Positions 5,345 to 52,188 of a stretch of 64,000 nt of DNA are shown here, one piece after another. The translations under genes and the position numbers were made by a program. Below the pieces are notes generated by a model that was not told where the DNA came from, searched no databases, and saw nothing but the letters and a program-made list of their open reading frames with translations. The first letter of the stretch is position 1. Every line of letters starts with the position of its first letter. Origin of the DNA: Candidatus Uhrbacteria bacterium (GTDB lineage: Bacteria > Patescibacteriota > Patescibacteriia > UBA9934 > GWF2-40-263); NCBI GenBank assembly GCA_013204385.1, contig JABMNY010000031.1, positions 1,168-65,167 on the forward strand, given 5' to 3'.

Positions 5345-5476
5345 GGATGTTCCTTTCTCATCGAAGAATCTGTTTTACAGATTCCACGTGATTCCGAGTC
5401 CCCATTTGATAAAAATGGATGCCTGGCAAAAGCAGAACGCCAATTTCCTCCCGAGTCCCGCTTTGTTAAAATAGAT

Positions 5477-5506
5477 GCCCGGCGGAGCCGGGTCCGGCTC
5501 CGCCGG
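5477..5506. repeat. near-perfect 13-bp-arm GC hairpin (ccggcggagccgg / ccggctccgccgg); its first 20 nt duplicate an internal tmRNA segment at 5886-5905
   Basis: Exact 20-nt match (cccggcggagccgggtccgg) between 5478-5497 and 5886-5905, read directly. Confidence 0.6.
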
Positions 5507-5561
5507 AAGATACGAATGAGCTGTGAACCGAAGCTCGAACAGATCGCTATTTTTACAAAGT

Positions 5562-5982
5562 GGGGCTGATCGGTATCGACGGGAGATCCTTCCAACCTGA
5601 TCAAGCCGTGTGGGTACGACTGCACGTAAATAAACTCGTACAAGACGACAACTGCAAACAACGTCATGGCAATGATCAAGAACGCTTTCAGTGTTCCTTC
5701 ATTCGCCCCTGTTCTCGCCTAAGGGTAAGAGAACCATTCGCCTTAGCTCGTCTGGGTGTTAAGTGTCGGGTGTTATAAATCCAGACTGGAGTGTGAGGTC
5801 ATCGATCTCTCACATTCGAGATTTGCGATCGATCCCTTGTTACGTATTACGCTACGTCTTAAGCGTAACATTGTAATCAGATGTACCCGGCGGAGCCGGG
5901 TCCGGTTAGCCGGAGATGTGCTTGGAAACGTCATGTTGCAAAGCCTTACCGCACGGGAGTTCGATTCTCCCCAGCTCCACCA
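5562..5982 (+). ncRNA. ssrA: tmRNA (ssrA), about 421 nt; candidate tag reading frame 5654-5719 (ANNVMAMIKNAFSVPSFAPVLA) with TAA stop at 5720-5722
   Basis: The 5' end GGGGCTGATCGGTATCGACGGG matches the canonical tmRNA start (GGGGCUGAUUCUGGAUUCGACGGG). The 3' end GGGAGTTCGATTCTCCCCAGCTCCACCA is a T-arm plus acceptor stem plus CCA. The divergently adjacent gene is smpB. Confidence 0.85.
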
Positions 5983-18544: not shown

Positions 18545-18985
18545 ATGTTGGAGCTGAACGTGCAGATTCTGTCCCCCCTCGCTGGCTTGGCCTCTGCCAC
18601 TGCCACCACCTCCTCACAGGCCTCCCCGGCCAATCTCGAACATCTCCCCCGTCTGCAGACCGCGGCTGATACGCGGTTCATCCAGGAGGACAGCCCTACC
18701 TGGAACACGACCCTTCTGGGCAGGCTCGTGGTCCTGGAGATCTACCCGATCGAATGGAACGATCCTGAAACCGAAGAACGCCTCGAGACGAACGTCGCAC
18801 AAATGCGCCACTGGCAGAAGTACGAGCTCGATGGCGTCGACATGGTCACCCTCGGTCGTGCCGCTCAGACCCTCGAGCGTAACAGCATCAACTGGCGCCA
18901 GGCCCGCGATCACGCACAGGTCCTCACCTGGGCCAACATGGTTGCTCCCGACAGCTCCACCCAGGTCAAGGAAGAAGTCCACTAG
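18545..18985 (+). CDS. high-GC hypothetical protein
   Basis: 146-aa ORF in a GC-rich islet; an antisense ORF of similar length exists, so coding-strand assignment is uncertain. Confidence 0.3.
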   Translation: MLELNVQILSPLAGLASATATTSSQASPANLEHLPRLQTAADTRFIQEDSPTWNTTLLGRLVVLEIYPIEWNDPETEERLETNVAQMRHWQKYELDGVDMVTLGRAAQTLERNSINWRQARDHAQVLTWANMVAPDSSTQVKEEVH

Positions 18986-24973: not shown

Positions 24974-25351
24974 TTAACCCACCGAGCTCACAAGCTCCTG
25001 CAGATAAGGATAGAAGATAACTATCCCCACAATCGCTGCAACAATTGAGGCAATGAGAACGGCCCCTGCCATAATATCTTTAATATCCTTAACGATTGGG
25101 TGAATTCTTGGCTTGAACGCATCGACAATCCGCTCAAAAATGCTGTTGATGAGCTCTAGAACAAGCACAGAGCCAATCAAGAGGATAAGAACGATCCATT
25201 GATATGCCTGAACTTGTACAAAGGCTCCTAGGAGAAGAACAGCAATACTGGCAAGTAGTTGAATACGGAAACTTTGCTCAGAGACAAACACGACACGAAT
25301 CCCCCCTATCGCATGCCTCATACTTTTCAAAAATCGTCCAAAATGAATCAT
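24974..25351 (-). CDS. dgkA: diacylglycerol kinase / undecaprenol kinase (DgkA family)
   Basis: 125 aa, three TM segments, FKSMRHAIGGIRVVF N-terminus. Confidence 0.8.
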   Translation of the reverse strand: MIHFGRFLKSMRHAIGGIRVVFVSEQSFRIQLLASIAVLLLGAFVQVQAYQWIVLILLIGSVLVLELINSIFERIVDAFKPRIHPIVKDIKDIMAGAVLIASIVAAIVGIVIFYPYLQELVSSVG

Positions 25352-25785
25352 AATCGACTATCAATATCTAAGGCGGTTAATATCTGCTCCTGAAGGAAAA
25401 ACATCTTTTGGGCGTCGGTCTTTTTTTCATGATCGTGCCCATACAAATGAAGCACTCCATGCACAATGAGAAAACAAATTTCATCTCGAACACGATGGTT
25501 CATTTCTTGTGCTTGCCGTTTTGCTTGAGCATAATTCAAGAGTACCTCCCCCTTCATCTGTGTCCCATCAAGCTGAAAAGAGAGGACGTCTGTTATGCGA
25601 TCTTTTCCTCTCCACTCACGATTTAGTCTCTTCATCTGCACTGAAGAGATAAATCCAATTGAGATAGACTCGCTCTTTCGAACGTTTAGTACACGAGAAC
25701 ACTCTTTAAGAACCTGTTGAAGCAATCTAAGAGGTACTCTCTGTCCTCCTCGCAAGAGAGACTGATTCAATTCAGCCACAATCAT
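25348..25785 (-). CDS. ybeY: rRNA maturation endoribonuclease YbeY
   Basis: HGVLHLYGHDHE metal-binding motif (HxxxHxxxxxH). Confidence 0.9.
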   Translation of the reverse strand: MIVAELNQSLLRGGQRVPLRLLQQVLKECSRVLNVRKSESISIGFISSVQMKRLNREWRGKDRITDVLSFQLDGTQMKGEVLLNYAQAKRQAQEMNHRVRDEICFLIVHGVLHLYGHDHEKKTDAQKMFFLQEQILTALDIDSRL

Positions 25786-26834
25786 AGTGCTTCTTCGCTT
25801 ACATCTATTTGCTCAGATACCTCTTCCACGCTCACAACTTGAACACTATTAATCATCATTTGAAATGTTTGAAGATAATCAACACGTGTCTTGATACCTG
25901 TATCGTATTCAAACACCATCACTTGGGAACCAAGATCAATATACGCACTTAATTGATCTTCACCTTGAATAAGATCGAGACCATTTTTTGTTGTTCCAAT
26001 AATAGAACGATCTAATGCCAGTTGGACATCTGCCCAGTCTGGTAAGGTTTGCGCTGGACTCTTTTTAATAAATGAAATACGAAATCCCTCTCCTGTCTGA
26101 GCATCTAACACAAGCTCTTCCTCTGTTTCATCTACATCCCAACCTTCTGGATAATAGAATTCATAGGTCACATCTGAAATCGTACTGCTCATTGCTTTGA
26201 CCAATCCTGATTCAAAAAGCGTCCCAAGCGCACCTGGGTTATAACGATGAAACACCTCATTCCCATCTAAAAATCCATCTGAGTCCGTATCTGGTAAACG
26301 TGGATCTGTCCCGTACACTAATTTTTCTTCTGTATCTGTTAACCCATCTGAATCAGAATCTGTTCCTGGAAGAACTTCCACTGGAAATACCTCTACGGCT
26401 TCTGTTGGTTTCTCTACAGGTTTTGTCGTTGACTCTTCTGGGTCCGTCGACGTCTCTGTTGTTGGTGCAGGTCGAGTTGTTGTTGTCACAACAGGAGTTT
26501 CAGAGACTTGTGGGTTCAAACGAATTAAAACGTAACCACCAATTCCTAAAGCCAATAACACCACCACACCGATCACCATGATTTTTTTTGTTGCGGATGA
26601 TTTCCGAAGAGTTGAAGCTGGAGCTTTTGGTGGCGCCTTTGGTGGAAGTGGAACCCCTGGAGTTTTTACTTCAACAGGAGGTTGTGAGCTTCTTTTGTCC
26701 TCAGGCTGGTGCATAACACCTTGCGCTCCATGACGATATCGTTCAGGCATCACAAACACACGAGCGTCCACGCCTGGCGAGGAACTCTGCGCAATAGGTG
26801 GCTGTTCAAGTGATTGTGTTGTTTCCTGAGACAT
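25782..26834 (-). CDS. bitopic membrane protein with thrombospondin-type-3-like (DxDxDG) Ca-binding repeats, paralog 3
   Basis: Pro-rich cytoplasmic N-terminus, TM (IMVIGVVVLLALGIGGYVLI), extracellular TDSDSDGLTDTEEKLVYGTDPRLPDTDSDGFLDGNEVFHRYNPG, then a C-terminal domain; the 4-nt overlap with ybeY implies cotranscription. Confidence 0.6.
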   Translation of the reverse strand: MSQETTQSLEQPPIAQSSSPGVDARVFVMPERYRHGAQGVMHQPEDKRSSQPPVEVKTPGVPLPPKAPPKAPASTLRKSSATKKIMVIGVVVLLALGIGGYVLIRLNPQVSETPVVTTTTRPAPTTETSTDPEESTTKPVEKPTEAVEVFPVEVLPGTDSDSDGLTDTEEKLVYGTDPRLPDTDSDGFLDGNEVFHRYNPGALGTLFESGLVKAMSSTISDVTYEFYYPEGWDVDETEEELVLDAQTGEGFRISFIKKSPAQTLPDWADVQLALDRSIIGTTKNGLDLIQGEDQLSAYIDLGSQVMVFEYDTGIKTRVDYLQTFQMMINSVQVVSVEEVSEQIDVSEEAL

Positions 26835-26845
26835 ACGAAAGCGGA

Positions 26846-27463
26846 TTAACTTGATTCAGAAGGGGCTTCGCGCAACAAACCATCTCCATTTGGATCATAT
26901 CCCCCCTTTACTTCAGCTCCATCTAAGTATCCATCTCCATCCGTATCAGGATTAAGCGGATCTGTTTCCCATGTATAGACTTCTTCACGATCAAAAAGCC
27001 CATCACCATCTGTATCAGCCGCACGGGAACTCGTTCCGAGCTCCTTTTCCTCTTCGTCTGTGAGACCATCCTTATCTGTATCTAACGCAACAGCAGGCTC
27101 TTCAGGAACTTCCTCAACAATATCTTCTTCTACCACCGTTGTTGAAGTATCCTCTTGCGTTTGCACAGCAGATGACGCAGGTGGCTCTGGTGTAAGGGTT
27201 GATTTTGATCCCAAAATCTTCATAGACAAGAAGAAGGAAGCGGTAACCGCTACAAGGATTCCAACAACAAGTACAATTATCTTCCAAGAAAATCCCCCTC
27301 CTCCAGAAGCACTTTGACTCATCATCTGCGCTGCTTTCATCGCAGGACCTGTTGTTGAAACAGGGGCTTGTTCAGGGAGATCTGTCGGAGCTGTAACTTG
27401 GGGAGCAACTTTATCCGTTTGCTCAAACATGTCTTCAGGGTCCTTTTTTACATCATCAAACAT
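26846..27463 (-). CDS. bitopic membrane protein with TSP3-like Ca-binding repeats, paralog 2
   Basis: TM (IIVLVVGILVAVTASFFL), then DTDKDGLTDEEEKELG...DTDGDGLFDREEV...TDPLNPDTDGDGYLDGAEVKGGYDPNGDGLL. Confidence 0.6.
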   Translation of the reverse strand: MFDDVKKDPEDMFEQTDKVAPQVTAPTDLPEQAPVSTTGPAMKAAQMMSQSASGGGGFSWKIIVLVVGILVAVTASFFLSMKILGSKSTLTPEPPASSAVQTQEDTSTTVVEEDIVEEVPEEPAVALDTDKDGLTDEEEKELGTSSRAADTDGDGLFDREEVYTWETDPLNPDTDGDGYLDGAEVKGGYDPNGDGLLREAPSESS

Positions 27464-27489
27464 AGATTCAATATTAGTTCGTCAATAGA

Positions 27490-28305
27490 TTATTCAAGAA
27501 GACCTGGACCGTTTGGATTATACCCCGAAGCAACTTCATCACCGTCAGAATAGCCATCTCCATCTGTATCTGGATTCAATGGATCCGTTCCGTACTGAGC
27601 CTCCTGTGCGGTCGTCAGACCATCCGCATCCTCATCGGCCTCCTCATTAACTGAAGAATCTTCTTCTGGAACAGCTTGATCTTGTTGAGAGAGAGCGCTT
27701 AACACTAATTCGAGACAGTTCCCTTGAGCTTGTTCATCTATCATTTGATCACAATAGGATCGATCAAGTGTTTCTAAAGCAAGTTGCTGTAAAGGATCTG
27801 TAACAGCATCATCGATAAATTGCATCTGACAACTTCTCTTACTTGAGGTGAGAGAAATTAAGTCGCAATAGGAATGATCTTGCTTGTTAACTGCCAAGAG
27901 TCCATACACATCATCTAAACAATCCCTCATCCATTCCTCATCAGCAATGACCTTACAGTACGTATCCTCTACAACTGTACGAGCTAATGCCCAATGACAA
28001 TTATCCTGTTCTGTTTGTGAATCAAGAAGTAGACAAAGTTCGGACGATGCATGTGAAACAGCAAGATCCAAGATCTTTCCATTCTGACACGATTCAACAT
28101 TTTCAACCCCCTCGCATGCGTTCGAGGCATTCGTTGTAAGCTGTGAGACAGTCTCTTCCATCAAGAAGAATGACTGCTGACGCCCGTAAAATACACGAAA
28201 TAAAACGAACACCAAGACGATGAGAACAAGAACAATCCCGACACCAATCGCAATAGGCTTCCAGGGAATACTCCGTTCTTGCTGGGGATAATCATTCAAA
28301 TCCAT
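27490..28305 (-). CDS. bitopic membrane protein with Cys-containing repeats and a C-terminal TSP3-like motif, paralog 1
   Basis: TM (IAIGVGIVLVLIVLVFVLF), about six periodic Cys motifs (SYCDxxxxxxC), C-terminus DEDADGLTTAQEAQYGTDPLNPDTDGDGYSDGDEVASGYNPNGPGLL. Confidence 0.6.
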   Translation of the reverse strand: MDLNDYPQQERSIPWKPIAIGVGIVLVLIVLVFVLFRVFYGRQQSFFLMEETVSQLTTNASNACEGVENVESCQNGKILDLAVSHASSELCLLLDSQTEQDNCHWALARTVVEDTYCKVIADEEWMRDCLDDVYGLLAVNKQDHSYCDLISLTSSKRSCQMQFIDDAVTDPLQQLALETLDRSYCDQMIDEQAQGNCLELVLSALSQQDQAVPEEDSSVNEEADEDADGLTTAQEAQYGTDPLNPDTDGDGYSDGDEVASGYNPNGPGLLE

Positions 28306-28311
28306 AACTCA

Positions 28312-31300
28312 TTATTCGTAAGGACAGTACGTTATATTGAAGTCGCTGAATTCCATTGTTCCAGTTCCATAAAATGCATTTCTGAGTGGAATCACCTGTT
28401 CCGTTGACTGACAGGCAAACGCTGTTGGAAATGGAAGTTCGACATTTGAACCTGATTGAACTTCACTTGTTGTAGTATAGGTTCCATCGTCATCCGTTGT
28501 CGTAAATGTTACCCGTGTCCCAAGAATGGAATCCACAATCGCGGCATACATCTCAGCAATTTCGTCTGAGCTGGATGCTGAAAACGCATAATCTCCCTCA
28601 CAATCTCCAGTGGACGTCACGCTACTCCACGCACATTCATTACTAGACATATGTGCCATATATCCCTTTAGATCACTGTCTGTTGTGACCGCTGCTGAGT
28701 AAATGAGGATGTCACTTCTTGGCACACCTTCCGTAGATCCATCAATAAGTACATCGGAGATCTCAGCTACACACGCAGGAACATCCGCATAATATGATGT
28801 CGATGGATAATTAGACCATGCATATCCAGAACATCCGGTAGACGAACCAACATTGAAAGTGCTATTGAGACCTGGATCTCCATCAGATAAGAGAACTACA
28901 ATTTTTACTTCGGCTGTAGATGCGCTCAGGATAGAAATAGCTTCACTCAATCCGTTATACGTAGGTGTTCCATTTACTACAGAATCGGCATAATCATCAA
29001 GGATACTCATCATGCTTGACTCCGACGAATATAAACTCAATCCAATATCAATTTCCGCTCCATCATCTACAGAACAATCTTCATCTTCACAATCAGCATT
29101 ATACTGACAGACATTGCCATCATCTGACCCCCCACTACAAAGTCCTGTTGATCCAGAGAAGGAGACGAGGGAAATCTGCATGGTCGCATCCAGTGAACCG
29201 TACGCATCAAAAAGATCTGAAACAGCATCTCGCGTTGCTTCAACCACATAGTCAATTCTTCGAATTCCAACAGGAGCTCCAGAAGCTTCACATGTCGACC
29301 CATCACATGATGAAGAACTTGTACACGCATCTCCGTCATTGGTTCCCCCATTACAATACTGATTCGTGTCCACATCCCAATCCATACTTCCTGAAAGATC
29401 CGTGACGAATACAATATCAACATCTGGATGCTCCACATCTTCATCATTAATATCTGCTGTAATCGATGTTGCAACACTGCAGGCTGGAATATAGAGCGCT
29501 GCATTATCAGGAGAATCGCCTTCATCATTCAGATAACTATAAAGCCTAATGGACTCTCCAGGAGTAGCTCCTAACGATTCACTCACAACAAATAATCCTG
29601 TCGTCTCATAAGATGTCGGACATGATGATCCGCAATTATCAGCGCAAATTGGTGCCACACAATCTCCTCCACTACAGGAATTGACGTCATTTCCTGATGT
29701 AAGCTCAGAAACCGTTCCACTACTTGCGTACGTTGTGTAGTTGAGTGTGCAATATTCTCCATTTTCCGTTCCCCCATTACAAACTCCAAGCCATCTACAG
29801 GTATAGCCATCTGAATCTGTTGTGTCATATTCCTCTGAAGCACAGGAGCCCGTTATGCTTCCTGATGTTGAATCATAATTCTTAAACGCGGTTGAATACG
29901 TTCCGTCACACACTTCAGAACCATTCACAACCCCATCTCCACAATAGGCTCCAGAGGTCGTCTTATACTGACAGATTGTGTTGCAATAATTACATGTACT
30001 GCCATAGTCGGCTTCACATAGCACTCCATTTCCTCCATGACTATCAACTTCCCCATCATCACAAGACTCGACGCCAACATAGACATAATCATCTCCACAG
30101 ACGTTTTCTTCACAGGTATTCAAACACGAATCATTGTTTGAGGAGTTTCCATCGTCGCACGCTTCATCTCCTTCCACTGTTCCGTTTCCACAAGTCTGAT
30201 CTCCTCCAACAGGACCCGTCCAAGTTGTTGGCCATTCACAAGATGAAGAGCAGGTTCGATAGCGATAAAGGTCGTATGTATTTGTAGAACATGCTCCACC
30301 ATTATCTTCACAATCTTCATTTGTATCTGTTGAATCACACGTATCTCCCGCATCATCCCCACCAATACAAATCGTTCCTGAACCCGCTGCTTCATATCCT
30401 GTCCCACCACAGGTATCCGTTCCATCACAATCACTGGTGGTCGTACAAGTTGTCACTCCATCAGAACAGAGTTTTCCTTCCCAGGATTCATAATCCCCGT
30501 CACAAGATTCACTTCCATTTACAATTCCATCTCCGCAAGAGAGCCCAGGAAGCGTGCAATTATACGCACAGTTATCTCCACCCGCATCATACTGTCCGTT
30601 TGAAGTTGCGCACCATGGAGAAGCAGTTGTTCCTGTTGCATCTGGACCTATTGTTGCCCAACTACTTGATTCTAAAATCACACTTGCATACGTGCTCGTT
30701 GTTCCACAATCACATTGCTCAGAACCAGCTAAATATCCATCTCCACAGGAGAATGAACCTGTGGCAGTACAAGTGTCTCCACAATGTCCGTAGGTTCCGT
30801 TCAATGAGCCATCATCACAATCCTCACCTGTTTCCACGACACCATTTCCACAATCATAAGGGATGCATTCTGCTCCTGCAAATTCTGCTTCTGTTTGATC
30901 TTGAAAATCTGAACAATCTGATAAACAGGAAACGGCAATCACTCCACCAGAAGCAGTGCAAGCAATGGTCATTGTATCTCCAATCTCACAACCTTCTAAC
31001 GCTCCTTGTGTTCCATCTCCACATAACGCTGAGTCTCCCCAAGTGCTTCCATCACAGAAGACCGGTGTCAATGAAAATCCGCTCATGACAGAACTTGGCG
31101 CGTTTCCTGTTGGATACTCAACTGTAATCGTTCCCTCGTCTGTAGAATCCGCATCTATATCTTCGGTCCATTCATATTCTCCAGAAAGTTCAAGGGTTGC
31201 ATAAAGTTTGTACGCCTCGCCTCCGACACTCTGATAGCCATACACATGTGAATTCTCTGGACACATAAACGTTCCAGATTCTCCGTTCCAACAAGAAGCA

Positions 31301-34300
31301 GAATCGTATCCGTCTTCTGAGCAGTTAAAAAATTCGTTTATTGGATCCGTTGGAAGTGTCGTTCCAAGTTCATTTGCAAGTGAGGCATTCCAAGAGCTCC
31401 AGATAGAGTTTGAGATTGCAGGAATAAACGTCCCAGATTGCACATCAGGAAACCCTACAACACAGACCTCTGTTCCAGGACAATCCTCATCTGCGTCACA
31501 AGATTGACCTTGTGTTACGGCACAATGTCCATTCTCCTCTCCGTAGGAATCGAGTGATGAAGCAAGGGCAGTCACGTCAATAAGTCGTTGCATGTCGCGT
31601 GTCAATTTTGCTTTTTGTCCATCACAGACAATAGTCTCTTCCTCAAACTCTTCATAACAATCCCCATCCCATTCACAGCTCACATACTCCTCATCCTCAT
31701 TCAGCGCATACGTTCCATCAGATTCATCCTGACACAAATTGATATTTGTCACTTCAAGATTATTCGCGTTAAACCGCCAATTCGTAAGCAATTGAGAGAA
31801 GATCTCCTCTGATTCTGCACTCGCATTGTCGTTATAGGAAACAACATACATGTTTGGATAGATATCTCCTGACGATTCAATAAGGTTTGCAGCTGCAGCA
31901 TACAGCGTATTTCCAGACTCAACCGCTGAATAGGAATCAAGTTCCGTCTGTGTAAATGCTCCCGTAAACTGTTGTTCCTCCACCCAATCAGCAGGTGAGA
32001 GATAACTTGCATTTGGAAGGACACGTACTCCAATCGCATCACTTGATCCTTCAACTTTAAAGATAATTTCTTGTCGAATCACCGATGAATCAAATGATGT
32101 GACATCGATTGGATCACCGAGCGCAGGAAGATCATCTTCTGTTCCATCTTCTCCTGCATCGCGACAGTAATAAAATGAGAAATAACTTGGGAGTACATCC
32201 TCCACGTATGGAAAACTTAAGGTTTCTGAAGCAAGGGAAGGCCATGGATTCTCACACAAAAGAGCTCTCACTTCTAGCGTTCCGGAAACAGTTCTTGCAG
32301 GAGATGATTCATCTGCATCCGTAGTTTCATCGTCTTCAATCTCAGCAGTAGATGGGTCAAACAACTCATCATCTGTAATGGTTGCAATCGCAAGCACGAT
32401 TTCACTTCCGTCATTTCCACTTGCGGTAAAACTACGAGTTGTGTCTTCTGGCTCCTCTGTCTCTGGGGTTATAACATTTGTTGAAGCAGAGTCTGTAATC
32501 GAAGATGCCCAAGACCAATCCCAATCATAGAGTCCTTCAATTGGAGAGATTTCTTGATATCCTCCAGCGCGATATGTTTGTGGTGTCGCGACAAACGCAT
32601 GCTCTTCTCCTGTTGTACTGAAATACTGAATACTCAAAGATTCATACTCTTCTGCATCCACATCCCCTGTATCCTCAAGAAGCACGCGATCAAGATCACA
32701 AATCTCTTCACCGATCGCAAATTTTTGACTGAAATATTCATCTTCGCAATCATCATCAATACAGAGAGTTACATCGTTTTGACTCAAGACACCTGTCTTT
32801 TCACTATCTGTTGGAGTCTCGTCGCCCACAACAACCAACTTATAGATTGCATTTTCTTGTAATAATTCACTGAAACGAAGATACACACGGGAGGTTCCAT
32901 CACCATTTTGCACGATCGAATAACTCGTGACCGGCACGTAACAGGAAAAAGTACTTGACGCCTGAACCTCACGACCAAACAACCCAAGAACAACTGATTT
33001 TATAAAATGCCAAATCTTTCCTCCGAAGCTCACAGACTCTGAACCAAGAGAACCAATGTACCCGGACGGACAATCTGCAATGTCGCTCACCGTCTCTTGA
33101 GCTCCGTCTCCATCTGAGTCAACGGAAACAAGATCAATGTAGAGATTTGAATCAAATTCATCCTCTTGAATTGTTCCATCCCCATCTAAATCCTCGGACG
33201 TTCCAAAGGTTGTCTCATCCATCGATTCTGAAAATTCAATCCATACAGCACTATTTCGACAGAACCCCTCATCCGTTCCTGCAAGAAATGCCACAGAGTT
33301 ATCTGCGGGAGAAAGTTCTCCAATTGTTGGACGTTCATAACAACAGTTACTTTCCCCACATCCCAAACCAGCCGCTCCACACGAATTATCTGTGGTACAA
33401 GCACACTGTAATCGAAGCGTTGCCTCTCCTTCCACATCCTCATCCACAACAACAGAAATGGTCGAGATAGCGTATCCTGTGTCTTCGTTTACTTCCGTTG
33501 GAGCACCTGTTGCAACTTGCGCAACACCATAATCTCCTGCTGAGAACGAGGCTGTTGAAAGGGCGTCACAATCCTCTGCGGTTCCAACAATGCCGTCGCC
33601 ACAAAAAGATGGTGTCGCATACTCGTACGACGACCCAAGCCAGAGACAACTGCTTGAACATCCCTCGTCTCCGTCACATGCTTCTCCGGTGTCTACATCT
33701 CCATTTCCACAACAGTTTGCTGAATCACTGGTTGGACACACACTGCTTCCTTCGTACAAACACTCAGAAGAACATCCATCGTCTTCCGCAGAATAATCAC
33801 CTGGGTCACAGTCTTCTCCTTCGTCAATGGTGCCGTCTCCACAAATGGCATAGACATCGTCTTCTGAAGCAGATCCTTCTAAGAGGCAATTCCTTGAACA
33901 ACCATCACCACTTGATGTGTTTCCATCATCGCAATCCTCACCTCCAGTATTTACCACCCAATCCTGTGTTCCATCTCCGCAGACTGAACCGATCGACCGA
34001 GCTCCCTCATTTTTACATGAAGAGGAGCATCCATCACCACTCGTAATGTTTCCATCGTCACAATCTTCTCCTCCCGCAGAGGCTGACCAATCTCGTACTC
34101 CATTTCCACAACAACCTGAACCTGAACGTTCACAGCTATCGCCAGAGTAATAAACACACTCACTACTTGCGCCAGAACAAACACCTCCTGAGAGAGAACA
34201 AGCTCCTACACAAGAACCTGAATCACAGACCCCGTCGTTGGAACACGATGTGTCTGCGTCCTCAAAATCTTCACACAAACCAGCTTCCGAACAGCTTCTG

Positions 34301-37300
34301 CTTTCACATCCTTCGTCTCCTACACAGGCATTACCCACATCTGAAGCAGATGTGCACATAGCGCTTGCACACGTCTCATTACAGGATGCGTCGTTTGTAC
34401 ACTCCGCTCCTGAGGAACTACATGTTGCATCACACTGTACTGATCCTTCATTTAAACACACAGCAGAACATCCATCTCCAGCCTCTGTCCCGCCATCATC
34501 ACATTCTTCGGAATCTTCTACTGATCCATTTCCACAAACTCCGTCAGCGATCGTGACAGGAGCCCCCGCATTCAAGCACGCTGCTGTACAGTAACTTGCA
34601 ATATCAGATGTCAGCTCGATCGCTCCATTTGAAATCATGTAGGAAACGACCTCATCTGAATCCGTGGTACTGGTACTCACTCCATTTTGATTTTGCGCGT
34701 CAGTCGAAACCCATGCATCCCAAAGGTAAGATCCTGACTGAAGCGTTTGACCCTGATCTGAACAATCATCAGGGGCTCCTAATGCAAATGCATCAAACTC
34801 TGCGCGATCTCCCACATAGTAGAGCGTTGCGACAGATGGATCGAGTGTAAGCGAATCAACCGCACAACTCACCGCATCATTTTTTGTTCGAAACACCCAT
34901 GAGAACGCATCTTCAAAATACCGGTTATCATCCGTTCCGTAATTGGAACCTGAGTCAGAAAGAGCAACTCCCGTACAAGAATAAATTTCTGTCGCATCAA
35001 CAACTACGCGATACCAGGTATTGGGCTCTAAGGTCTCTCCATCATTAAAATTAATATAGAACTTCTGGGTTGAATCTTCTTCTGTCTCACAGGTATCGCC
35101 TGAAAAACTCACTGAGGCAACTTCTGCAAACTCCGTCAGTTCTGATGTTTCACACAATGAGTTGTCACATTCATATAATGTGACAGCGCCTGCTCCAATC
35201 GTTCCTCCATCCATCTTTGTATTAAATTCAGCCCAAGGCAACGCGTTCACACACGCGGTTGTACATTGTGGAAAGTAATCTTCAATTTCTGGATCGAGAA
35301 AATTAATCGTCAACTCCCCCTCACCCGATGGATCTCCTTCTGCGTCTGTAACGGTTGCGGTAATAATGGCTGGATCATCTGAAGTCGTTTCAGATTGTGC
35401 ATACACTTCATTCACACACACACCAGACCATTCAGATGTTGGAATTAACACATCGTCTGAAACAGAATCCCAATACAAGGTATATCCAGCACAACTCAAC
35501 GCAACACAACTATCGTTTTGTGCGGTCAGCTGAGCTGTGTAGTCAACGTATGCTTGTTCTGTTTGCGTATATTCCCCTGGACGCACATTCACGTCTCCCA
35601 CCTCACATAATTCCGTAGAGCTACTTGTTGTAAACTCCCAATCAAAATCTTCCGCGAGATATCCTCCATCTGCACTTTGGATTTGATCTCCTCCCTGAAG
35701 AGAGACCTGGTAATGTGTCCCCGCTTCAAACAACCCAGACGTAGGTTGCCAGGAAAATCCTGTTTCGTCTGGAGTAGGCATTGTGCCTTCGACAACCTCC
35801 CAAGTCTTACACTCTCCTTCACTTGCCAAGACACAAGACTCGTCCTCGTCTTCACAATCTCCAACATCGTCACACGCATCTCCTGAAAACGAGCAATAGC
35901 GGTCTTCTGCGGTTTCTTCTTCAAGGGTAAATTCTGAACTACAAGAACGAACAATAACCGTCGATGTCGTAAGTGTATCGCCGTTCATCGCCATATTAAA
36001 CTCAGCTTGCACACTTGCATTCAAACAAATATCGTCTGGGTCGCTCCATCCATCCCACGGAGATGGAGAAGTTCCATCTTCATCACAGGCAAGAATGACA
36101 CGCGGGGTATTTGGTGTAATCCCTGTCGTAATTTTAAATGCATAATGTGCTGACACTTCTTCTGTCTCGTCACAGGTTTCTGAACACGAACCATTAGAGC
36201 AACAACTCTCCCCCTCAGAACACAGGTCTGCATCCTCGCGACAATCTCCTACACTAAATGTCACAGAATTAGATGAATACCCACTTTCAGACTCTTCAAT
36301 ATAAACAGGTCCAGTTGCGGCTTCATCTGGAACGATCACAGATGAAATTTCATCATTTGCCCAAACCCCAAAAGTGGTCTCTTGTGTGGAATAAAAGACA
36401 ACCGTTCCATCATCAGACCCAAGATTCTCTCCGTAGAGCGTAATTTCAGATTCCGCTGGTCCAGCAGAAGGATCGATATTACAGATCGATGGTCCGGGCA
36501 CCTCATCAAGAACAACAAAATCCTCTGCTCCTGATGTATTTCCATCCGCGCGCTCAACAGTCAATGCGTGCGTGATTGCCTCAATCGCATCCTCATCTTC
36601 TGTAAGATACGTCTCAGGGACCTTCATGGTAATAGAGGTGTCATGCCAAAAATCTTCACCACAGACATCAGGAAAATCTGTATCTCCTAATGCAGTATAC
36701 CCAAGCGATTCGTTATCAAAGAAAACAGATCCAGTAGACGTTCCAAATCCCGTTCCATAAATCGTAATGTACTGACCTGCTGGCCCCCAATTGTCGGCAT
36801 CATCACATGTGGCCCCTTCACTACAATCATCATCAGATCCACAATGGGTATTATCATCTGAACATGCCTGCCAACCTGAATCAATAAAAGAAATGATTGG
36901 ACTAGAAGAACTTGAAGAGTCAGCTACGGTAAATGTAACTTTATTTGATCCAACACGGACTGATTCACAAGACCCTCCATCATCTCCACAATCGTCGTCA
37001 TCTCCACAGTACTCAAGTGTTTCAGAGCACCAAGACGCAGCACAACTCTCACCTGCATCTGTGTCACAATCTTCATCGTCTGTACAAGTATCTCCTGTAG
37101 CTACGTTATCTGTATCAACACACAGATAGTCCCCCGTAAACACTTGTCCACTATATCTTCCGGAATTCACATTTGGAACGGAAAGATTCAAGAGTGTGTC
37201 GGACCATGAAACATAGGTACTTGCTTCGTAGTTTGTAAAATAAAACGTAGAAGATCCTTGTGAATCTCCAAAACTGTTTCCGTACACTTCGATGGTAGAT

Positions 37301-38976
37301 CCATAGGTGTCTGAATCTGGATCAAGGAGACAAATTCCAGGTCGCGCAATCGCATTTACATCAAAGTCTGAAATGGATGGACCATAATCATCATCTGTTC
37401 GTTCTGTTTCGTCATCACTTGTCACAACAGAGATCGGTCCATCAATTGCCCCAGAAGGGACTTGGACAATAATCTCAGAATCTGACCATTGAATCTCAGA
37501 ATTACATTCGTAGGCAGATGCAGAGGTCTCGTCACTATTTTCTGTTCCCAAGAAATAGAGAACACCTTCCTCATCTCCAAACCCTTCTCCAGAGATTGTA
37601 ATCAGATTTCCTTCAGCTCCATCTCCTGCAGAAACACTCTCAATTTTTGGAATGGTAACGCATTGTCCGTCGACACATTGTCCGCTTGCACAATCGGAAT
37701 CTTCAGAACATGAATCTCCATCGCAAGACCCACAGTAGTAAGCACTTGAAGAATCTCCTCCGCAATCCACTTCTGTTTCACCCAAATCTTCATCGAGCAC
37801 TTCGTTATTACAATTTGCTGCACGCAACACAATTGAAACACGAGATGCCGTATCAGAATTACCGGCACAATCGTATCCTTTTGCCCAAATGTTATACGTT
37901 TCATTTGTGGTATATCCTTCTGTGTCCCATTCCTCAGCTGTATCACTAAAGAATGCATTTTCAACATTTCCTCCTAGCAGTTCACCTGCATTTGAATAAT
38001 CAACTCCTGAGGAATAGATCGCTTCCTCATCATCAATGACATAAAAATCAACGGTTGAAACACCACTATCATCTGATGTCAGAGCTTGTAAAAGTTCAAT
38101 AGAACCCGCATAAAAACTCTCACCGTTTTCAGGAGCATCGATCTCAACGGTTGGATCTGCGATATCCACCTCTGATCCTGTTGTAAAACTAAAGGAGCAT
38201 GGATACGAACTTGAACAGGTCAGCGATGAACCAGCTGATGAATCGATTACCGTTGAATCGAGATCAATCGTATAACTACTGAGGGGATCAAAACAGGACT
38301 CATCTTCATATGGACTGTCACATGCTTGCGAAGGGGTAAACGTTACTGTACGACTCGAAACAATGAACGTTCCCTCAACAGCATCTCCTCCAGCATCTCG
38401 AATAAGGATACCTTCTTCCACAGTGTCCCCATCAATTTTCTTTGAGAAAACAAACTGGAGCTGAAGATTCTGCAATGCCTCTGCGCACTCTGTGTTCACA
38501 GAACTCAAATAAAATGTGGAGCTTCCACTTCCGTCTGTATAGGAACCTGACGAGGACGAGCTTCCAGAAATATCACCACTCGTCGCCCCCACAAGCGCAT
38601 TTAAAATAAACTGTGCGATCGCAAAACTTGAAAATACCAGTATGAGTCCGATCACCGAATTAATGATGATCTTCTTAGCCTTTGCAATCCTCTCAGGACT
38701 TCCTCCTGCCGTCATGTACACAAACCCTCCGTAGAGTATGAACACGACCGTCACAACTCCCACGAGCGTAATTGCCGTTCGAATGAGACGTGCAATGATC
38801 ACAGTGATGCTTGCTGTGGTGGAGAACCCAGCAGTCTCTGCGAATGACTCAAGATTCACATCTTGAGCAAATACTGGCGCGGCAACGAAAATCCCAACAC
38901 ATAATATTAGTGCAAGGAAAACGCCTAAGTAAGTTGCCCGAGTGAATCTACGCATGTCGTTAAAGTTCAGTTTCAC
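28312..38976 (-). CDS. giant (3554 aa) cysteine-rich secreted surface protein: signal peptide, VirB2/TrbC-like two-helix membrane module, Ig-like domains, four IPT/TIG domains, two clusters of Myxococcus-type Cys-rich repeats and a C-terminal vWA domain; putative adhesin
   Basis: One uninterrupted 10.6-kb ORF. N-terminus: signal peptide ending FAQ, then IIARLIRTAITLVGVVTVVFILYGGFVYM...AKAKKIIINSVIGLILVFSSFAIAQFIL. IPT/TIG-like blocks (e.g. PKIESVSAGDGAEGNLITISGEGFG...). Many CGDG/CGNG-x5-8-E-x-CDDGN units. MIDAS motif DIVFVTDLSGSM. Plus-strand His-rich ORFs across this span are antisense artefacts. Confidence 0.85.
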   Translation of the reverse strand: MKLNFNDMRRFTRATYLGVFLALILCVGIFVAAPVFAQDVNLESFAETAGFSTTASITVIIARLIRTAITLVGVVTVVFILYGGFVYMTAGGSPERIAKAKKIIINSVIGLILVFSSFAIAQFILNALVGATSGDISGSSSSSGSYTDGSGSSTFYLSSVNTECAEALQNLQLQFVFSKKIDGDTVEEGILIRDAGGDAVEGTFIVSSRTVTFTPSQACDSPYEDESCFDPLSSYTIDLDSTVIDSSAGSSLTCSSSYPCSFSFTTGSEVDIADPTVEIDAPENGESFYAGSIELLQALTSDDSGVSTVDFYVIDDEEAIYSSGVDYSNAGELLGGNVENAFFSDTAEEWDTEGYTTNETYNIWAKGYDCAGNSDTASRVSIVLRAANCNNEVLDEDLGETEVDCGGDSSSAYYCGSCDGDSCSEDSDCASGQCVDGQCVTIPKIESVSAGDGAEGNLITISGEGFGDEEGVLYFLGTENSDETSASAYECNSEIQWSDSEIIVQVPSGAIDGPISVVTSDDETERTDDDYGPSISDFDVNAIARPGICLLDPDSDTYGSTIEVYGNSFGDSQGSSTFYFTNYEASTYVSWSDTLLNLSVPNVNSGRYSGQVFTGDYLCVDTDNVATGDTCTDDEDCDTDAGESCAASWCSETLEYCGDDDDCGDDGGSCESVRVGSNKVTFTVADSSSSSSPIISFIDSGWQACSDDNTHCGSDDDCSEGATCDDADNWGPAGQYITIYGTGFGTSTGSVFFDNESLGYTALGDTDFPDVCGEDFWHDTSITMKVPETYLTEDEDAIEAITHALTVERADGNTSGAEDFVVLDEVPGPSICNIDPSAGPAESEITLYGENLGSDDGTVVFYSTQETTFGVWANDEISSVIVPDEAATGPVYIEESESGYSSNSVTFSVGDCREDADLCSEGESCCSNGSCSETCDETEEVSAHYAFKITTGITPNTPRVILACDEDGTSPSPWDGWSDPDDICLNASVQAEFNMAMNGDTLTTSTVIVRSCSSEFTLEEETAEDRYCSFSGDACDDVGDCEDEDESCVLASEGECKTWEVVEGTMPTPDETGFSWQPTSGLFEAGTHYQVSLQGGDQIQSADGGYLAEDFDWEFTTSSSTELCEVGDVNVRPGEYTQTEQAYVDYTAQLTAQNDSCVALSCAGYTLYWDSVSDDVLIPTSEWSGVCVNEVYAQSETTSDDPAIITATVTDAEGDPSGEGELTINFLDPEIEDYFPQCTTACVNALPWAEFNTKMDGGTIGAGAVTLYECDNSLCETSELTEFAEVASVSFSGDTCETEEDSTQKFYINFNDGETLEPNTWYRVVVDATEIYSCTGVALSDSGSNYGTDDNRYFEDAFSWVFRTKNDAVSCAVDSLTLDPSVATLYYVGDRAEFDAFALGAPDDCSDQGQTLQSGSYLWDAWVSTDAQNQNGVSTSTTDSDEVVSYMISNGAIELTSDIASYCTAACLNAGAPVTIADGVCGNGSVEDSEECDDGGTEAGDGCSAVCLNEGSVQCDATCSSSGAECTNDASCNETCASAMCTSASDVGNACVGDEGCESRSCSEAGLCEDFEDADTSCSNDGVCDSGSCVGACSLSGGVCSGASSECVYYSGDSCERSGSGCCGNGVRDWSASAGGEDCDDGNITSGDGCSSSCKNEGARSIGSVCGDGTQDWVVNTGGEDCDDGNTSSGDGCSRNCLLEGSASEDDVYAICGDGTIDEGEDCDPGDYSAEDDGCSSECLYEGSSVCPTSDSANCCGNGDVDTGEACDGDEGCSSSCLWLGSSYEYATPSFCGDGIVGTAEDCDALSTASFSAGDYGVAQVATGAPTEVNEDTGYAISTISVVVDEDVEGEATLRLQCACTTDNSCGAAGLGCGESNCCYERPTIGELSPADNSVAFLAGTDEGFCRNSAVWIEFSESMDETTFGTSEDLDGDGTIQEDEFDSNLYIDLVSVDSDGDGAQETVSDIADCPSGYIGSLGSESVSFGGKIWHFIKSVVLGLFGREVQASSTFSCYVPVTSYSIVQNGDGTSRVYLRFSELLQENAIYKLVVVGDETPTDSEKTGVLSQNDVTLCIDDDCEDEYFSQKFAIGEEICDLDRVLLEDTGDVDAEEYESLSIQYFSTTGEEHAFVATPQTYRAGGYQEISPIEGLYDWDWSWASSITDSASTNVITPETEEPEDTTRSFTASGNDGSEIVLAIATITDDELFDPSTAEIEDDETTDADESSPARTVSGTLEVRALLCENPWPSLASETLSFPYVEDVLPSYFSFYYCRDAGEDGTEDDLPALGDPIDVTSFDSSVIRQEIIFKVEGSSDAIGVRVLPNASYLSPADWVEEQQFTGAFTQTELDSYSAVESGNTLYAAAANLIESSGDIYPNMYVVSYNDNASAESEEIFSQLLTNWRFNANNLEVTNINLCQDESDGTYALNEDEEYVSCEWDGDCYEEFEEETIVCDGQKAKLTRDMQRLIDVTALASSLDSYGEENGHCAVTQGQSCDADEDCPGTEVCVVGFPDVQSGTFIPAISNSIWSSWNASLANELGTTLPTDPINEFFNCSEDGYDSASCWNGESGTFMCPENSHVYGYQSVGGEAYKLYATLELSGEYEWTEDIDADSTDEGTITVEYPTGNAPSSVMSGFSLTPVFCDGSTWGDSALCGDGTQGALEGCEIGDTMTIACTASGGVIAVSCLSDCSDFQDQTEAEFAGAECIPYDCGNGVVETGEDCDDGSLNGTYGHCGDTCTATGSFSCGDGYLAGSEQCDCGTTSTYASVILESSSWATIGPDATGTTASPWCATSNGQYDAGGDNCAYNCTLPGLSCGDGIVNGSESCDGDYESWEGKLCSDGVTTCTTTSDCDGTDTCGGTGYEAAGSGTICIGGDDAGDTCDSTDTNEDCEDNGGACSTNTYDLYRYRTCSSSCEWPTTWTGPVGGDQTCGNGTVEGDEACDDGNSSNNDSCLNTCEENVCGDDYVYVGVESCDDGEVDSHGGNGVLCEADYGSTCNYCNTICQYKTTSGAYCGDGVVNGSEVCDGTYSTAFKNYDSTSGSITGSCASEEYDTTDSDGYTCRWLGVCNGGTENGEYCTLNYTTYASSGTVSELTSGNDVNSCSGGDCVAPICADNCGSSCPTSYETTGLFVVSESLGATPGESIRLYSYLNDEGDSPDNAALYIPACSVATSITADINDEDVEHPDVDIVFVTDLSGSMDWDVDTNQYCNGGTNDGDACTSSSSCDGSTCEASGAPVGIRRIDYVVEATRDAVSDLFDAYGSLDATMQISLVSFSGSTGLCSGGSDDGNVCQYNADCEDEDCSVDDGAEIDIGLSLYSSESSMMSILDDYADSVVNGTPTYNGLSEAISILSASTAEVKIVVLLSDGDPGLNSTFNVGSSTGCSGYAWSNYPSTSYYADVPACVAEISDVLIDGSTEGVPRSDILIYSAAVTTDSDLKGYMAHMSSNECAWSSVTSTGDCEGDYAFSASSSDEIAEMYAAIVDSILGTRVTFTTTDDDGTYTTTSEVQSGSNVELPFPTAFACQSTEQVIPLRNAFYGTGTMEFSDFNITYCPYE
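28777..29439 (-). other. von Willebrand factor type A domain of the giant protein (about aa 3180-3400)
   Basis: DIVFVTDLSGSM MIDAS motif (DxSxS) followed by the alternating beta/alpha pattern (...IVVLLSDGDPG...). Confidence 0.6.
29887..31029 (-). other. Cys-rich repeat cluster 2 of the giant protein (about aa 2650-3030)
   Basis: CGNGVVETGEDCDDGSLNG; CGDGIVNGSESCDGD; CGNGTVEGDEACDDGNSSNNDSCLNTCEEN; CGDGVVNGSEVCDG. Confidence 0.5.
33577..34545 (-). other. Cys-rich repeat cluster 1 of the giant protein (about aa 1478-1800)
   Basis: Units such as CGNGSVEDSEECDDGGTEAGDGCSAVCLNEG and CGNGVRDWSASAGGEDCDDGNITSGDGCSSSCKNEG resemble the Myxococcus cysteine-rich repeat (established family, recalled from memory). 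Confidence 0.5.
36247..37650 (-). other. region encoding four IPT/TIG-like domains of the giant protein (about aa 443-910)
   Basis: Positions derived by counting residues; motif pattern P.I.S..P..G..GT.ITI.G.GFG......V.F...... repeated four times. Confidence 0.5.
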
Positions 38977-51381: not shown

Positions 51382-52188
51382 TTATGCAGCCGCAGCCGTA
51401 GGTTCTGCAGGTGCAGCAGGTTCATCCTTCTTTGCCGCATCATCAAGCTCTTCTCCAAGGAGCTTTGCGACATCATCTCCAAACTTTTCTTTAAGCACGG
51501 TTTGACGCTTTGTTTTCTTCGCAGCCGCATCAAGGCCCTTATAATACTTTTTCTCATTCGCTAAAAATTCTTTGTGCAATTTATCGACTAATTTTTTCCG
51601 CGCTTCCTTATTTGCTTTGATGTATTGATACAGAGACTTATCAAGCCCTAGAAATTTCGCAGATGAATCTAAGAGCGATACAAGTGGATTCAGGACATAT
51701 TTGAGGAGAGGAATGTTTTTATCAATCAATTTATTCCCAATCTTATCTAATCCTCGACCAAGCCAATCCATTCCGTACAAGATGCTTCTTACTCCAAATC
51801 CAACTGTCTTTGCTCCCACGTACGTAAGCGCCGCCGCTGATCCAACTGCGACACTCACACCAGTCTTTCCTTTTTCCGCTGAATAAGAACCAGCTCTTTT
51901 TGCGTAGTCCTTCAAAAAGATAAGCTTCCCTTCTGGAGCATCAGCCAGATCGACTATTGAAATCTCCGTAAGTTCTCCGGATTCTGTGCCAGAAGCTTCT
52001 GCACTCATACGTGCCTGTTCTCGCGCCGCAGCAATTGCCGCGGCATCCATAGCCGTATCTGGTGTACGCGTGGGACGGACAACATCTGGAATCTTTGGAC
52101 CTGTGTCTCTTGTTCTCGAGCCTGGTGCAGAACCTTCACGCGAAGTATCAGGTTGACGTCTTAAAGACTCACGACGGTTTGTTGCCAT
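51382..52188 (-). CDS. hypothetical protein, Lys/Ala-rich
   Basis: Start set at MATNRRESL (ATG 52188). The track's 52293 start would overlap the divergent relA start. No recognisable domain. Confidence 0.4.
   Translation of the reverse strand: MATNRRESLRRQPDTSREGSAPGSRTRDTGPKIPDVVRPTRTPDTAMDAAAIAAAREQARMSAEASGTESGELTEISIVDLADAPEGKLIFLKDYAKRAGSYSAEKGKTGVSVAVGSAAALTYVGAKTVGFGVRSILYGMDWLGRGLDKIGNKLIDKNIPLLKYVLNPLVSLLDSSAKFLGLDKSLYQYIKANKEARKKLVDKLHKEFLANEKKYYKGLDAAAKKTKRQTVLKEKFGDDVAKLLGEELDDAAKKDEPAAPAEPTAAAA

Follow-up and report, generated by a model that had tools for sequence, protein, structure and literature searches.

The window analysed here is a stretch of 64,000 nucleotides from an ultra-small bacterium of groundwater, Candidatus Uhrbacteria bacterium (Patescibacteriota; assembly GCA_013204385.1, contig JABMNY010000031.1, positions 1,168 to 65,167 of the forward strand). 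We focus on three consecutive genes on its minus strand, designated P1, P2 and P3, which encode proteins with one putative membrane helix each and a common acidic block of repeats of the Pfam TSP3_bac type (bacterial thrombospondin type 3). An initial annotation, made from the sequence alone, had placed three such genes at 25782-28305, downstream of a gene for a giant protein and upstream of ybeY. Both statements are confirmed: the genes are adjacent minus-strand open reading frames (ORFs), separated from the giant gene by 6 nt and overlapping ybeY by 4 nt. The set and its neighbours are as follows.

27490..28305 (-): P1 gene, 271 aa (ORF); short N-terminus, membrane helix, Cys-pair helical repeat domain, C-terminal TSP3_bac pair
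26846..27463 (-): P2 gene, 205 aa (ORF); 59-aa N-terminus, membrane helix, acidic linker, three TSP3_bac repeats
25782..26834 (-): P3 gene, 350 aa (ORF); basic 83-aa N-terminus, helix, Thr/Pro-rich linker, TSP3_bac pair, PsbP-like domain
28312..38976 (-): gene of the giant surface protein, 3554 aa, upstream neighbour of P1
38960..40840 (-): gene of a 626-aa protein with T4SS_pilin and Big_5 domains, first gene of the conserved block
25348-25785 (-): ybeY (Pfam), downstream context, outside the surface set
24974-25351 (-): dgkA (DAGK), downstream context, outside the surface set

The spacing from the gene of the 626-aa protein through ftsA is operon-like: the 626-aa gene overlaps the giant gene by 17 nt, the P1-P2 and P2-P3 gaps are 26 and 11 nt, ybeY overlaps dgkA by 4 nt, and overall the overlaps are 17, 4 and 4 nt and the gaps 6-26 nt. 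P3 is followed by ybeY, DAGK, ftsA and ftsZ in this order, and the gene block is presumably transcribed as a unit. The P3 protein is 100% identical to HQ487_03815 in NCBI, a protein from a metagenome-assembled genome (MAG) of Candidatus Uhrbacteria.

The only significant similarity between any two of the three proteins is a block of approximately 49 residues (pairwise BLASTP, 53-65% identity, E = 2e-12 to 3e-16), in which P3 is 53-55% identical to P1 and P2. To control for composition, the residues were permuted inside the block itself, so that its acidity was kept, with 2000 shuffles for each comparison. The Smith-Waterman scores of the blocks are 130-161 against 28-32 +/- 6 for the shuffled sequences (z = 18-21), and therefore the match is not explained by acidic composition. 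The Pfam model TSP3_bac (PF18884), whose gathering cut-off for a whole protein is 25 bits with this hidden Markov model (HMM), matches P1 with 39.8 bits (E 3.9e-10) and P2 with 51.0 bits (E 1.2e-13, in three stretches), while P3, with 24.5 bits, falls 0.5 bit below the cut-off. Across the three proteins the E-values run from 1e-13 to 2e-5, and 53 of the 70 P3 orthologs match the model at E <= 0.01 (best E 8e-9). A six-frame scan of the 64-kb window finds the motif D.D.DG...D..E in the P1-P3 genes only, and the block stays in register across more than 100 orthologs. Its positions in the window are given below.

27493..27639 (-): P1 TSP3_bac pair and cap, aa 223-271; loops DEDADGLTTAQE (aa 224) and DTDGDGYSDGDE (aa 246), end GYNPNGPGLLE
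26870..27085 (-): P2 three TSP3_bac repeats, aa 127-198; loops at aa 128, 150 and 173
26217..26363 (-): P3 TSP3_bac pair, aa 158-206; loops DSDSDGLTDTEE (aa 159) and DTDSDGFLDGNE (aa 182)

The initial annotation had described the motif as a C-terminal, TSP3-like calcium-binding repeat resembling those associated with OmpA, had suggested that the three regions be aligned, and had named insignificance against shuffled controls as the ground for giving it up. The alignment and the shuffles above support the motif; its TSP3-like, Ca-binding character is borne out by the PF18884 match and by the EF-hand ligand pattern described below, and the likeness to OmpA-associated repeats by proteins of other bacteria that carry both PF00691 and PF18884. 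Three details have to be revised. The block is C-terminal in P1 and P2, as had been stated, but internal in P3, where a folded domain of approximately 135 aa lies behind it. P2 carries three repeats rather than the implied two. Finally, the proposed regular expression captures a real motif, from which the first loop of P1, DEDADGLTTAQE, and the P3 end FHRYNPGA nevertheless deviate.

The loops start 22 residues apart in P1, 22 and 23 in P2, and 23 in P3. All seven fit the pattern DxDxDGxx[D/T]xxE, that is, the EF-hand ligand positions 1, 3, 5, 9 and 12, occupied by acidic or hydroxyl residues in every loop, together with the Gly at position 6. The stricter EF-hand pattern PROSITE PS00018 is matched by two of the seven (P2 loop 173 and P3 loop 182), and the Pfam EF-hand models stay below threshold (EF-hand_6, 20.9 against 25 bits; EF-hand_1, 19.5 against 25.4). 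In the AlphaFold2 models of P1 and P3, a short helix follows each loop and none precedes it, the P1 pair being modelled with a predicted local distance difference test (pLDDT) score of 92-95. Because the entering helix is absent from the models and the EF-hand scores are sub-threshold, we regard the repeat as built of EF-hand-type loops that do not form the canonical helix-loop-helix.

The only solved structure found by sequence is the pair of EF-hands 2 and 3 in region B of Staphylococcus aureus Bap (7C7R, 7C7U), whose loop pair DYDKDGLLDRYE...DTDGDGKNDGDE is the aligned segment, at E 2e-4 for a single sequence (the three-loop region of P2) and 3e-6 for a profile. In Bap, mutations at loop positions 1, 3 and 12 abolish Ca2+ control of Bap-mediated biofilm, and the pair is a Ca2+ sensor (review, PMC7785521). 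From the ligand pattern and this mutagenesis-tested relative, the loops of P1-P3 would be expected to bind Ca2+.

The initial annotation called the genes three paralogs. This term is valid for the shared module only, because outside the block and the membrane helix P1-P3 are unrelated by any detectable similarity; judged by their sequences, they are three distinct, separately conserved orthologous families and not simple paralogs. Between-family identity of the TSP3 blocks is 0.40 within a genome and equally 0.40 between genomes (the ungapped extraction used for these values is noisy), which gives no sign of homogenisation by gene conversion among the three blocks. Each family also keeps its own block signature, such as LPDTDxDGFLDGNEVFHxYNP in the P3 family, and the divergence of the three modules is therefore old.

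On the Kyte-Doolittle scale, P1, P2 and P3 show a single strongly hydrophobic stretch each (P1 aa 18-36, P2 aa 62-80, P3 aa 85-103; 19-residue means 2.7-3.4, with 3.42 for P1 and 2.76 for P2), as expected from the single membrane span per protein that had been proposed before. The helices are placed as follows.

28192..28260 (-): P1 membrane helix, aa ~16-38, a likely signal anchor; Kyte-Doolittle, and a continuous AlphaFold2 helix over aa 16-63
27215..27286 (-): P2 membrane helix, aa ~60-83; Kyte-Doolittle
26517..26585 (-): P3 membrane helix, aa ~84-106; hydropathy, and an AlphaFold2 helix over aa 81-106

For P3 the orientation can be read from charge: the 15 residues before the helix contain five Lys/Arg against one after it, which would put the N-terminus (isoelectric point, pI, 9.9) inside. 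The regions after the helix have a pI of approximately 4 in all three proteins. An arrangement with the N-terminus in and the C-terminus out is thus probable for the set, since the basic P3 N-terminus, the acidic ectodomains and the paired, invariably even-numbered Cys of P1 agree with an outside location.

The Cys residues of P1 lie in its helical domain, where the initial annotation had noticed periodic pairs.

27670..28128 (-): P1 helical repeat domain, aa ~60-212, five Cys pairs; AlphaFold2 pLDDT 95-98, Cys alignment

The five pairs, 64/73, 91/103, 117/129, 147/159 and 185/197, recur with a period of 25-30 aa and a within-pair spacing of mostly 11, or 8 in the first pair. In the model, short and long helices alternate, and each Cys pair joins a short helix to the next long one. 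Among 37 full-length Uhrbacteria orthologs (29-53% identity), the Cys columns are fully or almost fully invariant, and the number of Cys is always even: 12 in 28 orthologs, 10 in eight and 8 in one. The P1 protein of the window has 10, the fifth of the usual six pairs being deleted. Even, paired Cys fit disulfides, which the pairs presumably form, and therefore an extracytoplasmic location. The domain has no match in Pfam or NCBIfam and no significant structure match in the PDB (Foldseek; best E 0.28, to designed repeat proteins). Used alone as a query, it retrieved itself only; the word index of this search is blind to so fast-evolving a domain, and the orthologs were obtained through words in the TSP3 block. 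A relation to Sel1-like repeats or to the Helicobacter Hcp proteins was considered and set aside: P1 gives no such Pfam match, no Hcp protein is among the listed Foldseek matches, and the Cys spacing is 11 (8 in the first pair), not 7.

P2 is the simplest of the three, with no Cys and no domain beyond its 59-aa N-terminus, the helix, the acidic linker and the three loops. P3, also without Cys, has 631 detected homologs, mostly of 320-360 aa, and those that carry an organism name belong to Uhrbacteria. Both proteins have a conserved peptide in front of the helix, and P3 a folded domain at its C-terminus.

27419..27463 (-): P2 N-terminal motif MFDDVKKDPEDMFEQ, aa 1-15, presumed cytoplasmic; conserved in orthologs
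26727..26756 (-): P3 motif FVMPERYRHG, aa 27-36, presumed cytoplasmic; 70-ortholog alignment
25815..26216 (-): P3 PsbP/Mog1/DUF1795-like alpha-beta domain, aa ~207-340; AlphaFold2 pLDDT 93-97, Foldseek

The start of P2, MFDDVKKDPEDMFE, recurs in the P2-like genes of Falkowbacteria-type loci (L087:8001-8909 and L088:8001-8825), and a PEDIF/PEDMF core is found in the TSP3 genes of 45 of 86 loci. In the P3 peptide, M29, P30, Y33 and G36 are invariant in 70 orthologs while the rest of the N-terminus varies; the Falkowbacteria-type homologs (L087, L088) have IHTMPEKF or IHIIPKKF instead.

By its model, the C-terminal domain of P3 has the PsbP/Mog1/DUF1795 fold. The Foldseek search of the PDB returns CyanoP (2lnj, E 1.3e-4; 2xb3, E 4.6e-4) and Tsi3 (3wa5_B, E 8.7e-4), then BT_1490 and the Eag chaperone SciW, with a probability of 0.99-1.00, a target-normalised template-modelling score of 0.45-0.54 and an identity of 10-16%. 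This fold is generally a protein-binding scaffold. PsbP, CyanoP, Mog1 and the DUF1795 proteins (DcrB, Tsi3 and the Eag chaperone) share it, whereas the P3 copy differs from them in that a membrane anchor and a TSP3 pair are joined to it. The Pfam PsbP family (PF01789) does not match P3 of the window, and one of the 70 orthologs touches it (E 0.007). As the sole query of an exhaustive HMMER search of 1.84 billion proteins, the domain retrieves 231 cluster representatives; of the 150 matches listed, out of the 231, nearly all have it at the C-terminus, and the proteins are mostly of 300-500 aa. On these sequence data, it is a small lineage-restricted family with essentially one architecture. Two other names were examined for P3. 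One source labels the homolog P0084 as RodZ; neither P3 nor any of the 70 orthologs matches a helix-turn-helix family, and the bitopic layout alone is shared. The position upstream of ftsA recalls FtsQ/DivIB; P3 matches neither POTRA nor FtsQ, and its fold is PsbP-like.

The two large upstream proteins begin alike. [quoted passage not shown] The 626-aa protein starts in the same way, with T4SS_pilin and Big_5. VirB2-like pilin domains have been reported to be widespread in Patescibacteria (bioRxiv 10.1101/2025.01.22.634366). The window contains no type IV secretion system (T4SS) ATPase, VirB4 or other VirB component, the rest of it being housekeeping genes; the idea that the block serves conjugation or is a T4SS was therefore abandoned.

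For the comparison of gene order, we collected one genome per species, giving 80 loci with a relative of P3, and labelled their ORFs by phmmer with the proteins of the window; 61 of these loci have enough upstream DNA to be informative. A homolog of the giant lies directly upstream of the TSP3 genes in all 61. Between it and ybeY there are three TSP3 genes in 49 loci and two in 12, the first gene of the set typically encoding 12 Cys. On the other side, YbeY follows the P3 homolog in 79 of the 80 loci, and DAGK-FtsA-FtsZ come next in 73. In deeper branches, one variant of the set consists of proteins of about 200 aa with four loops, about 300 aa, and about 470 aa with the PsbP-like domain, and another has two PsbP-type genes; the principle of a single helix plus TSP3 loops is retained.

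Beyond the Uhrbacteria-type genomes, to which P1 is confined, P2 and P3 are found more widely, and the block recurs in Falkowbacteria-type and other Patescibacteria loci. Three TSP3-only matches, the first of them in a Falkowbacteria genome, sit in the same block, in the order T4SS_pilin/Big_5 protein, large surface protein, P2-like, P3-like, YbeY, DAGK. Two of these loci (L087, L088) lack the adjacency to ftsA, and the surface proteins still adjoin, with homologs of the 626-aa protein at the equivalent position. A metagenome scan seeded with the Falkowbacteria-type P3 adds six informative loci, all with a large Cys-rich protein upstream, so that TSP3 genes lacking a large surface protein upstream occur in 0 of 61 and 0 of 6 loci. 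One of the six is L091 (1-11599, 11651-17694). In it, P2-like and P3-like genes come directly after four genes for Cys-rich or Ig-like surface proteins; on their other side lie clpP, secD, secF, a Wzy-like gene and the gene of a prepilin peptidase, and the locus has neither ybeY nor dgkA. Since its TSP3 genes keep the surface proteins without ybeY, this single case is the sole evidence that separates belonging with the adhesin from belonging with ybeY. TSP3-only matches outside Patescibacteria lie in unrelated contexts, for example beside TonB receptors or metabolic genes, and the module by itself does not predict the neighbourhood. Many MAG records with the Uhrbacteria-type block (L011, L013, L014, L016, L021 and others) are titled 'uncultured Gammaproteobacteria bacterium' and are probably mislabelled.

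Identity to the closest relative is 95% for FtsA, 93% for FtsZ, 73% for DAGK, 71% for the giant and 68% for YbeY, and 66% for P3 (72% in its PsbP-like domain), 64% for P2 and 49% for P1. P2 and P3 are therefore conserved at about the rate of YbeY and DAGK. The Cys domain of P1, at 37% against 49-95% for the proteins, is the fastest-changing element, with a fixed Cys framework.

Our preferred reading, which we hold tentatively and to which we give not quite an even chance, is that P1-P3 may be Ca2+-dependent, membrane-anchored partner subunits of a Patescibacteria surface-adhesin complex; its basis is the conserved gene order. It takes up a plausible suggestion of the initial annotation, that the proteins could be accessory to the surface complex or anchor it. 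On this reading, the three proteins would keep their N-termini in the cytoplasm and their C-terminal parts outside, so that, in a monoderm cell, the Ca2+ loops would be displayed on the external side of the membrane. They would be made together with the two surface proteins anchored by VirB2-type hairpins, of 626 aa and 3554 aa. P1 would contribute a fast-evolving Cys-pair helical head, P2 a tether with three loops, and P3 a PsbP-like protein-interaction domain. Ca2+ loading would make the acidic modules rigid, and the rigid modules would serve as contact elements, through which the three anchors could bind, position or stiffen the base of the giant, or bind each other. In this manner the partners could tie the adhesin to the membrane and, via the conserved cytoplasmic peptides, to the cell interior. 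Physical contact of P1-P3 with the giant is itself a prediction. A more specific form of the proposal, which we rate as improbable, is an attachment organelle specific to Patescibacteria, on an integrin- or thrombospondin-like principle: Ca2+-loaded TSP3 anchors would dock onto the MIDAS-bearing VWA-like end of the giant or its Ig-like stalk, the P1 head would confer host specificity, and the P2 and P3 peptides would couple to the interior, possibly to FtsA/FtsZ.

Several observations weigh against the partnership with the giant. The synteny with ybeY-dgkA (79 of 80) is as strong as that with the giant, and L091 alone separates the two. The same TSP3 pair occurs on sortases (PF04203), YkuD L,D-transpeptidases (PF03734) and OmpA proteins (PF00691) of CPR bacteria (Candidate Phyla Radiation), and may be a general envelope module; its fusion to sortase and L,D-transpeptidase domains suggests a mobile envelope element that is not specific to this locus. 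The VWA call in the giant is weak, as the VWA_2 match is below threshold (E 1e-3), and no PDB sequence matched the C-terminal 425 aa. As for topology, the positive-inside signal of P1 and P2 is weak or ambiguous. Moreover, a promoter and terminator scan is uninformative: it counts 21 promoter-like sites where 34.5 would be expected, and 14 terminator-like ones where the expectation is 13.9.

The main alternative, which we consider possible though on the whole doubtful, is that P1-P3 are general envelope or division-linked housekeeping proteins that share an operon with ybeY-dgkA-ftsA-ftsZ, the TSP3 pair being a generic module of the wall zone that is bridged by Ca2+ to peptidoglycan or anionic polymers, or that acts as a rigid spacer. 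The downstream gene order (YbeY in 79 of 80 loci, DAGK-FtsA-FtsZ in 73, and the 4-nt overlap of P3 and ybeY) is what such proteins would show, as are the YbeY/DAGK-like rates of P2 and P3 and the fusions of the pair to sortase, YkuD and OmpA domains, which without exception act on the wall or bind to it; the conserved peptides of P2 and P3 could equally address housekeeping partners. Against this explanation stand L091, where the P2-like and P3-like genes remain beside surface proteins in a locus that has no ybeY-dgkA, L087 and L088, which keep the surface proteins and lose the adjacency to ftsA, and the consistent presence of a large surface protein upstream of the TSP3 genes (none missing in 61 and 6 loci). 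In addition, no divisome or wall-synthesis family in Pfam or NCBIfam matches P1-P3.

The initial annotation also offered diversified receptor-binding modules, which may be put as receptor or host-recognition proteins with TSP3 as a common stalk and a P1 head that binds host or environmental ligands. The P1 head alone would suit this proposal: its Cys domain evolves fastest (37% against 95% for FtsA) around an invariant Cys framework, a pattern typical of exposed recognition scaffolds, and P1 is confined to Uhrbacteria-type genomes while P2 and P3 are wider. P2, however, has no head, the PsbP-like domain of P3 is conserved (72% to the closest relative) within a narrow single-architecture family, and P2 and P3 change at YbeY/DAGK-like rates. 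The genes are single-copy in each locus, with 1:1 orthologs and no variant arrays, and the TSP3 blocks show neither within-genome homogenisation nor shuffling, so the proposal is mostly unsupported and we give it a small chance. We judge it quite improbable, too, that the proteins are transmembrane Ca2+ or contact sensors, in which the external loops report Ca2+ or adhesin load and the peptides FxMPERYRHG (P3) and MFDDVKK..PEDMFE (P2) relay it inward, for example to FtsA/FtsZ. Such a role would account for cytoplasmic motifs that are invariant in otherwise poorly conserved N-termini, Bap, the closest experimentally studied relative of the loop pair, is a Ca2+ switch, and ftsA-ftsZ belong to the same gene string; nevertheless, P1-P3 contain no signalling domain recognisable by Pfam or NCBIfam, neither motif has a known partner, and the ftsA adjacency is lost in L087, L088 and L091. 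Lastly, the block might be an acidic low-complexity stretch whose resemblance is due to chance or composition, in genes that are unrelated. Although the ectodomains are very acidic (pI ~4), this is refuted by the z values of 18-21, the Pfam E-values of 1e-13 to 2e-5 and the register conserved in more than 100 orthologs, and we consider its probability practically nil.

The repeat itself is already catalogued. Pfam TSP3_bac describes the same 22-23-residue repeat, DxDxDGLxDxEE...GTDPLNP, in many architectures, including OmpA, sortase and YkuD proteins. It defines a repeat and not a protein family or function, and the single-pass anchor, the heads of P1 and P3, the GY[ND]PNGxGxL cap and the fixed neighbourhood lie outside its definition. 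Metagenomic proteins that combine TSP3_bac with a sortase domain (P0161, P0177, P0180, P0181, P0193) or with YkuD (P0239) have a block 52-67% identical.

Among characterised systems, Bap resembles P1-P3 in having two DxDxDG loops 23 residues apart with acidic residues after each, on an extracellular protein of a monoderm. It is, however, a sortase-anchored giant adhesin whose own large folded region bears the loops and which forms amyloid when Ca2+ is low, whereas here the loops are on small separate membrane proteins in which no amyloid-related region is evident. Two systems of Myxococcus xanthus offer a closer parallel in organisation. TraB, which has TSP3 repeats, is co-encoded with the polymorphic Cys-repeat receptor TraA and binds and anchors it 1:1 (PMC12045341). 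Here, too, TSP3 proteins share an apparent operon with a Cys-repeat surface protein, and the giant carries Myxococcus-type DUF4215 repeats. Unlike P1-P3, which are three proteins with one helix each in the only membrane of the cell, TraB belongs to a diderm and joins an outer-membrane beta-barrel to an OmpA domain that binds peptidoglycan; membership of a TraB-like or OmpA family was rejected, as P1-P3 have no OmpA (PF00691) or barrel match. The DxDxDG repeats of CglD have been proposed to engage the VWA MIDAS adhesin CglB in Ca2+-dependent adhesion (bioRxiv 10.1101/2023.10.19.562135). The likeness is again one of DxDxDG repeats and a VWA partner, given the VWA-like end of the giant with its DxSxS, for which the VWA call is weak. 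CglD differs in being a 1130-aa outer-membrane lipoprotein with 12 repeats and a VWA domain of its own, and there is no gliding machinery here. Its repeat region is the best NCBIfam match of all three proteins, far below threshold; membership of the CglD/MtsD families (NF033765, NF047639) was rejected, with 18-28 bits in the repeat region only against cut-offs of 400 and 800. The relation to TraB and CglD may thus be described as one of working alike, by analogy, and not of family membership.

In eukaryotic thrombospondin and COMP type 3 repeats, too, tandem DxDxDG Ca2+ loops are part of an adhesive system outside the cell; those repeats have intra-repeat disulfides and no helices, whereas the repeats here have no Cys and, in the models, a short helix after each loop. 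P1-P3 have no match to the eukaryotic TSP_3 family (PF02412) at E <= 1, and there is no Cys in any repeat. Type I dockerins were likewise rejected, with no PF00404 match in P1-P3 at E <= 1 and no cohesin domain found in either of the two large upstream proteins, the giant and the one of 626 aa. As the layout of two loops and two helices is similar, P1-P3 may still act in a dockerin-like way.

Outside the type IV pili of Saccharibacteria, the attachment of Patescibacteria (CPR) to hosts or surfaces is largely obscure. The locus presents a compact conserved block that can be tested as an attachment apparatus, consisting of two Ig-rich proteins with VirB2-like anchors and two or three single-pass proteins with EF-hand-type loops, and it is present in every informative Uhrbacteria-type genome examined as well as in Falkowbacteria-type genomes. 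In a literature search we found no description of a fixed set of two or three single-pass TSP3 proteins, nor of their two head domains, their invariant cytoplasmic peptides or their obligatory place beside a VirB2-like-anchored giant. The set offers a minimal tethered putative Ca2+ module (P2), a Cys-pair helical repeat without a solved counterpart (P1) and a lineage-restricted PsbP-like ectodomain (P3), and it also supplies two invariant cytoplasmic peptides (P2, P3) without a known partner. If the partnership with the giant is true, the logic of TraA/TraB and CglB/CglD would reach beyond the diderm myxobacteria to ultra-small bacteria that are monoderm; if it is false, the genes would be those of ordinary envelope proteins with a known repeat.

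Some other features of the window may be mentioned. Nearly the entire window has a negative GC skew (cumulative -3.7), and the minus strand carries most of the genes, consistent with a single replichore whose leading strand is the minus strand. A transfer-messenger RNA (tmRNA) gene lies at 5562-5982 (+) (Rfam, 98.5 bits), with the tag peptide ANNVMAMIKNAFSVPSFAPVLA; the ORF at 5257-5679 (-) overlaps it and is probably not a gene. At E <= 0.001, Pfam matches none of the ORFs at 60318-62798 (-, 826 aa), 59075-60379 (-, 434 aa), 51382-52293 (-, 303 aa), 55042-55647 (-, 201 aa) and 18545-18985 (+, 146 aa). The first two of these share 62 nt and could encode a further pair of large proteins that are uncharacterised.

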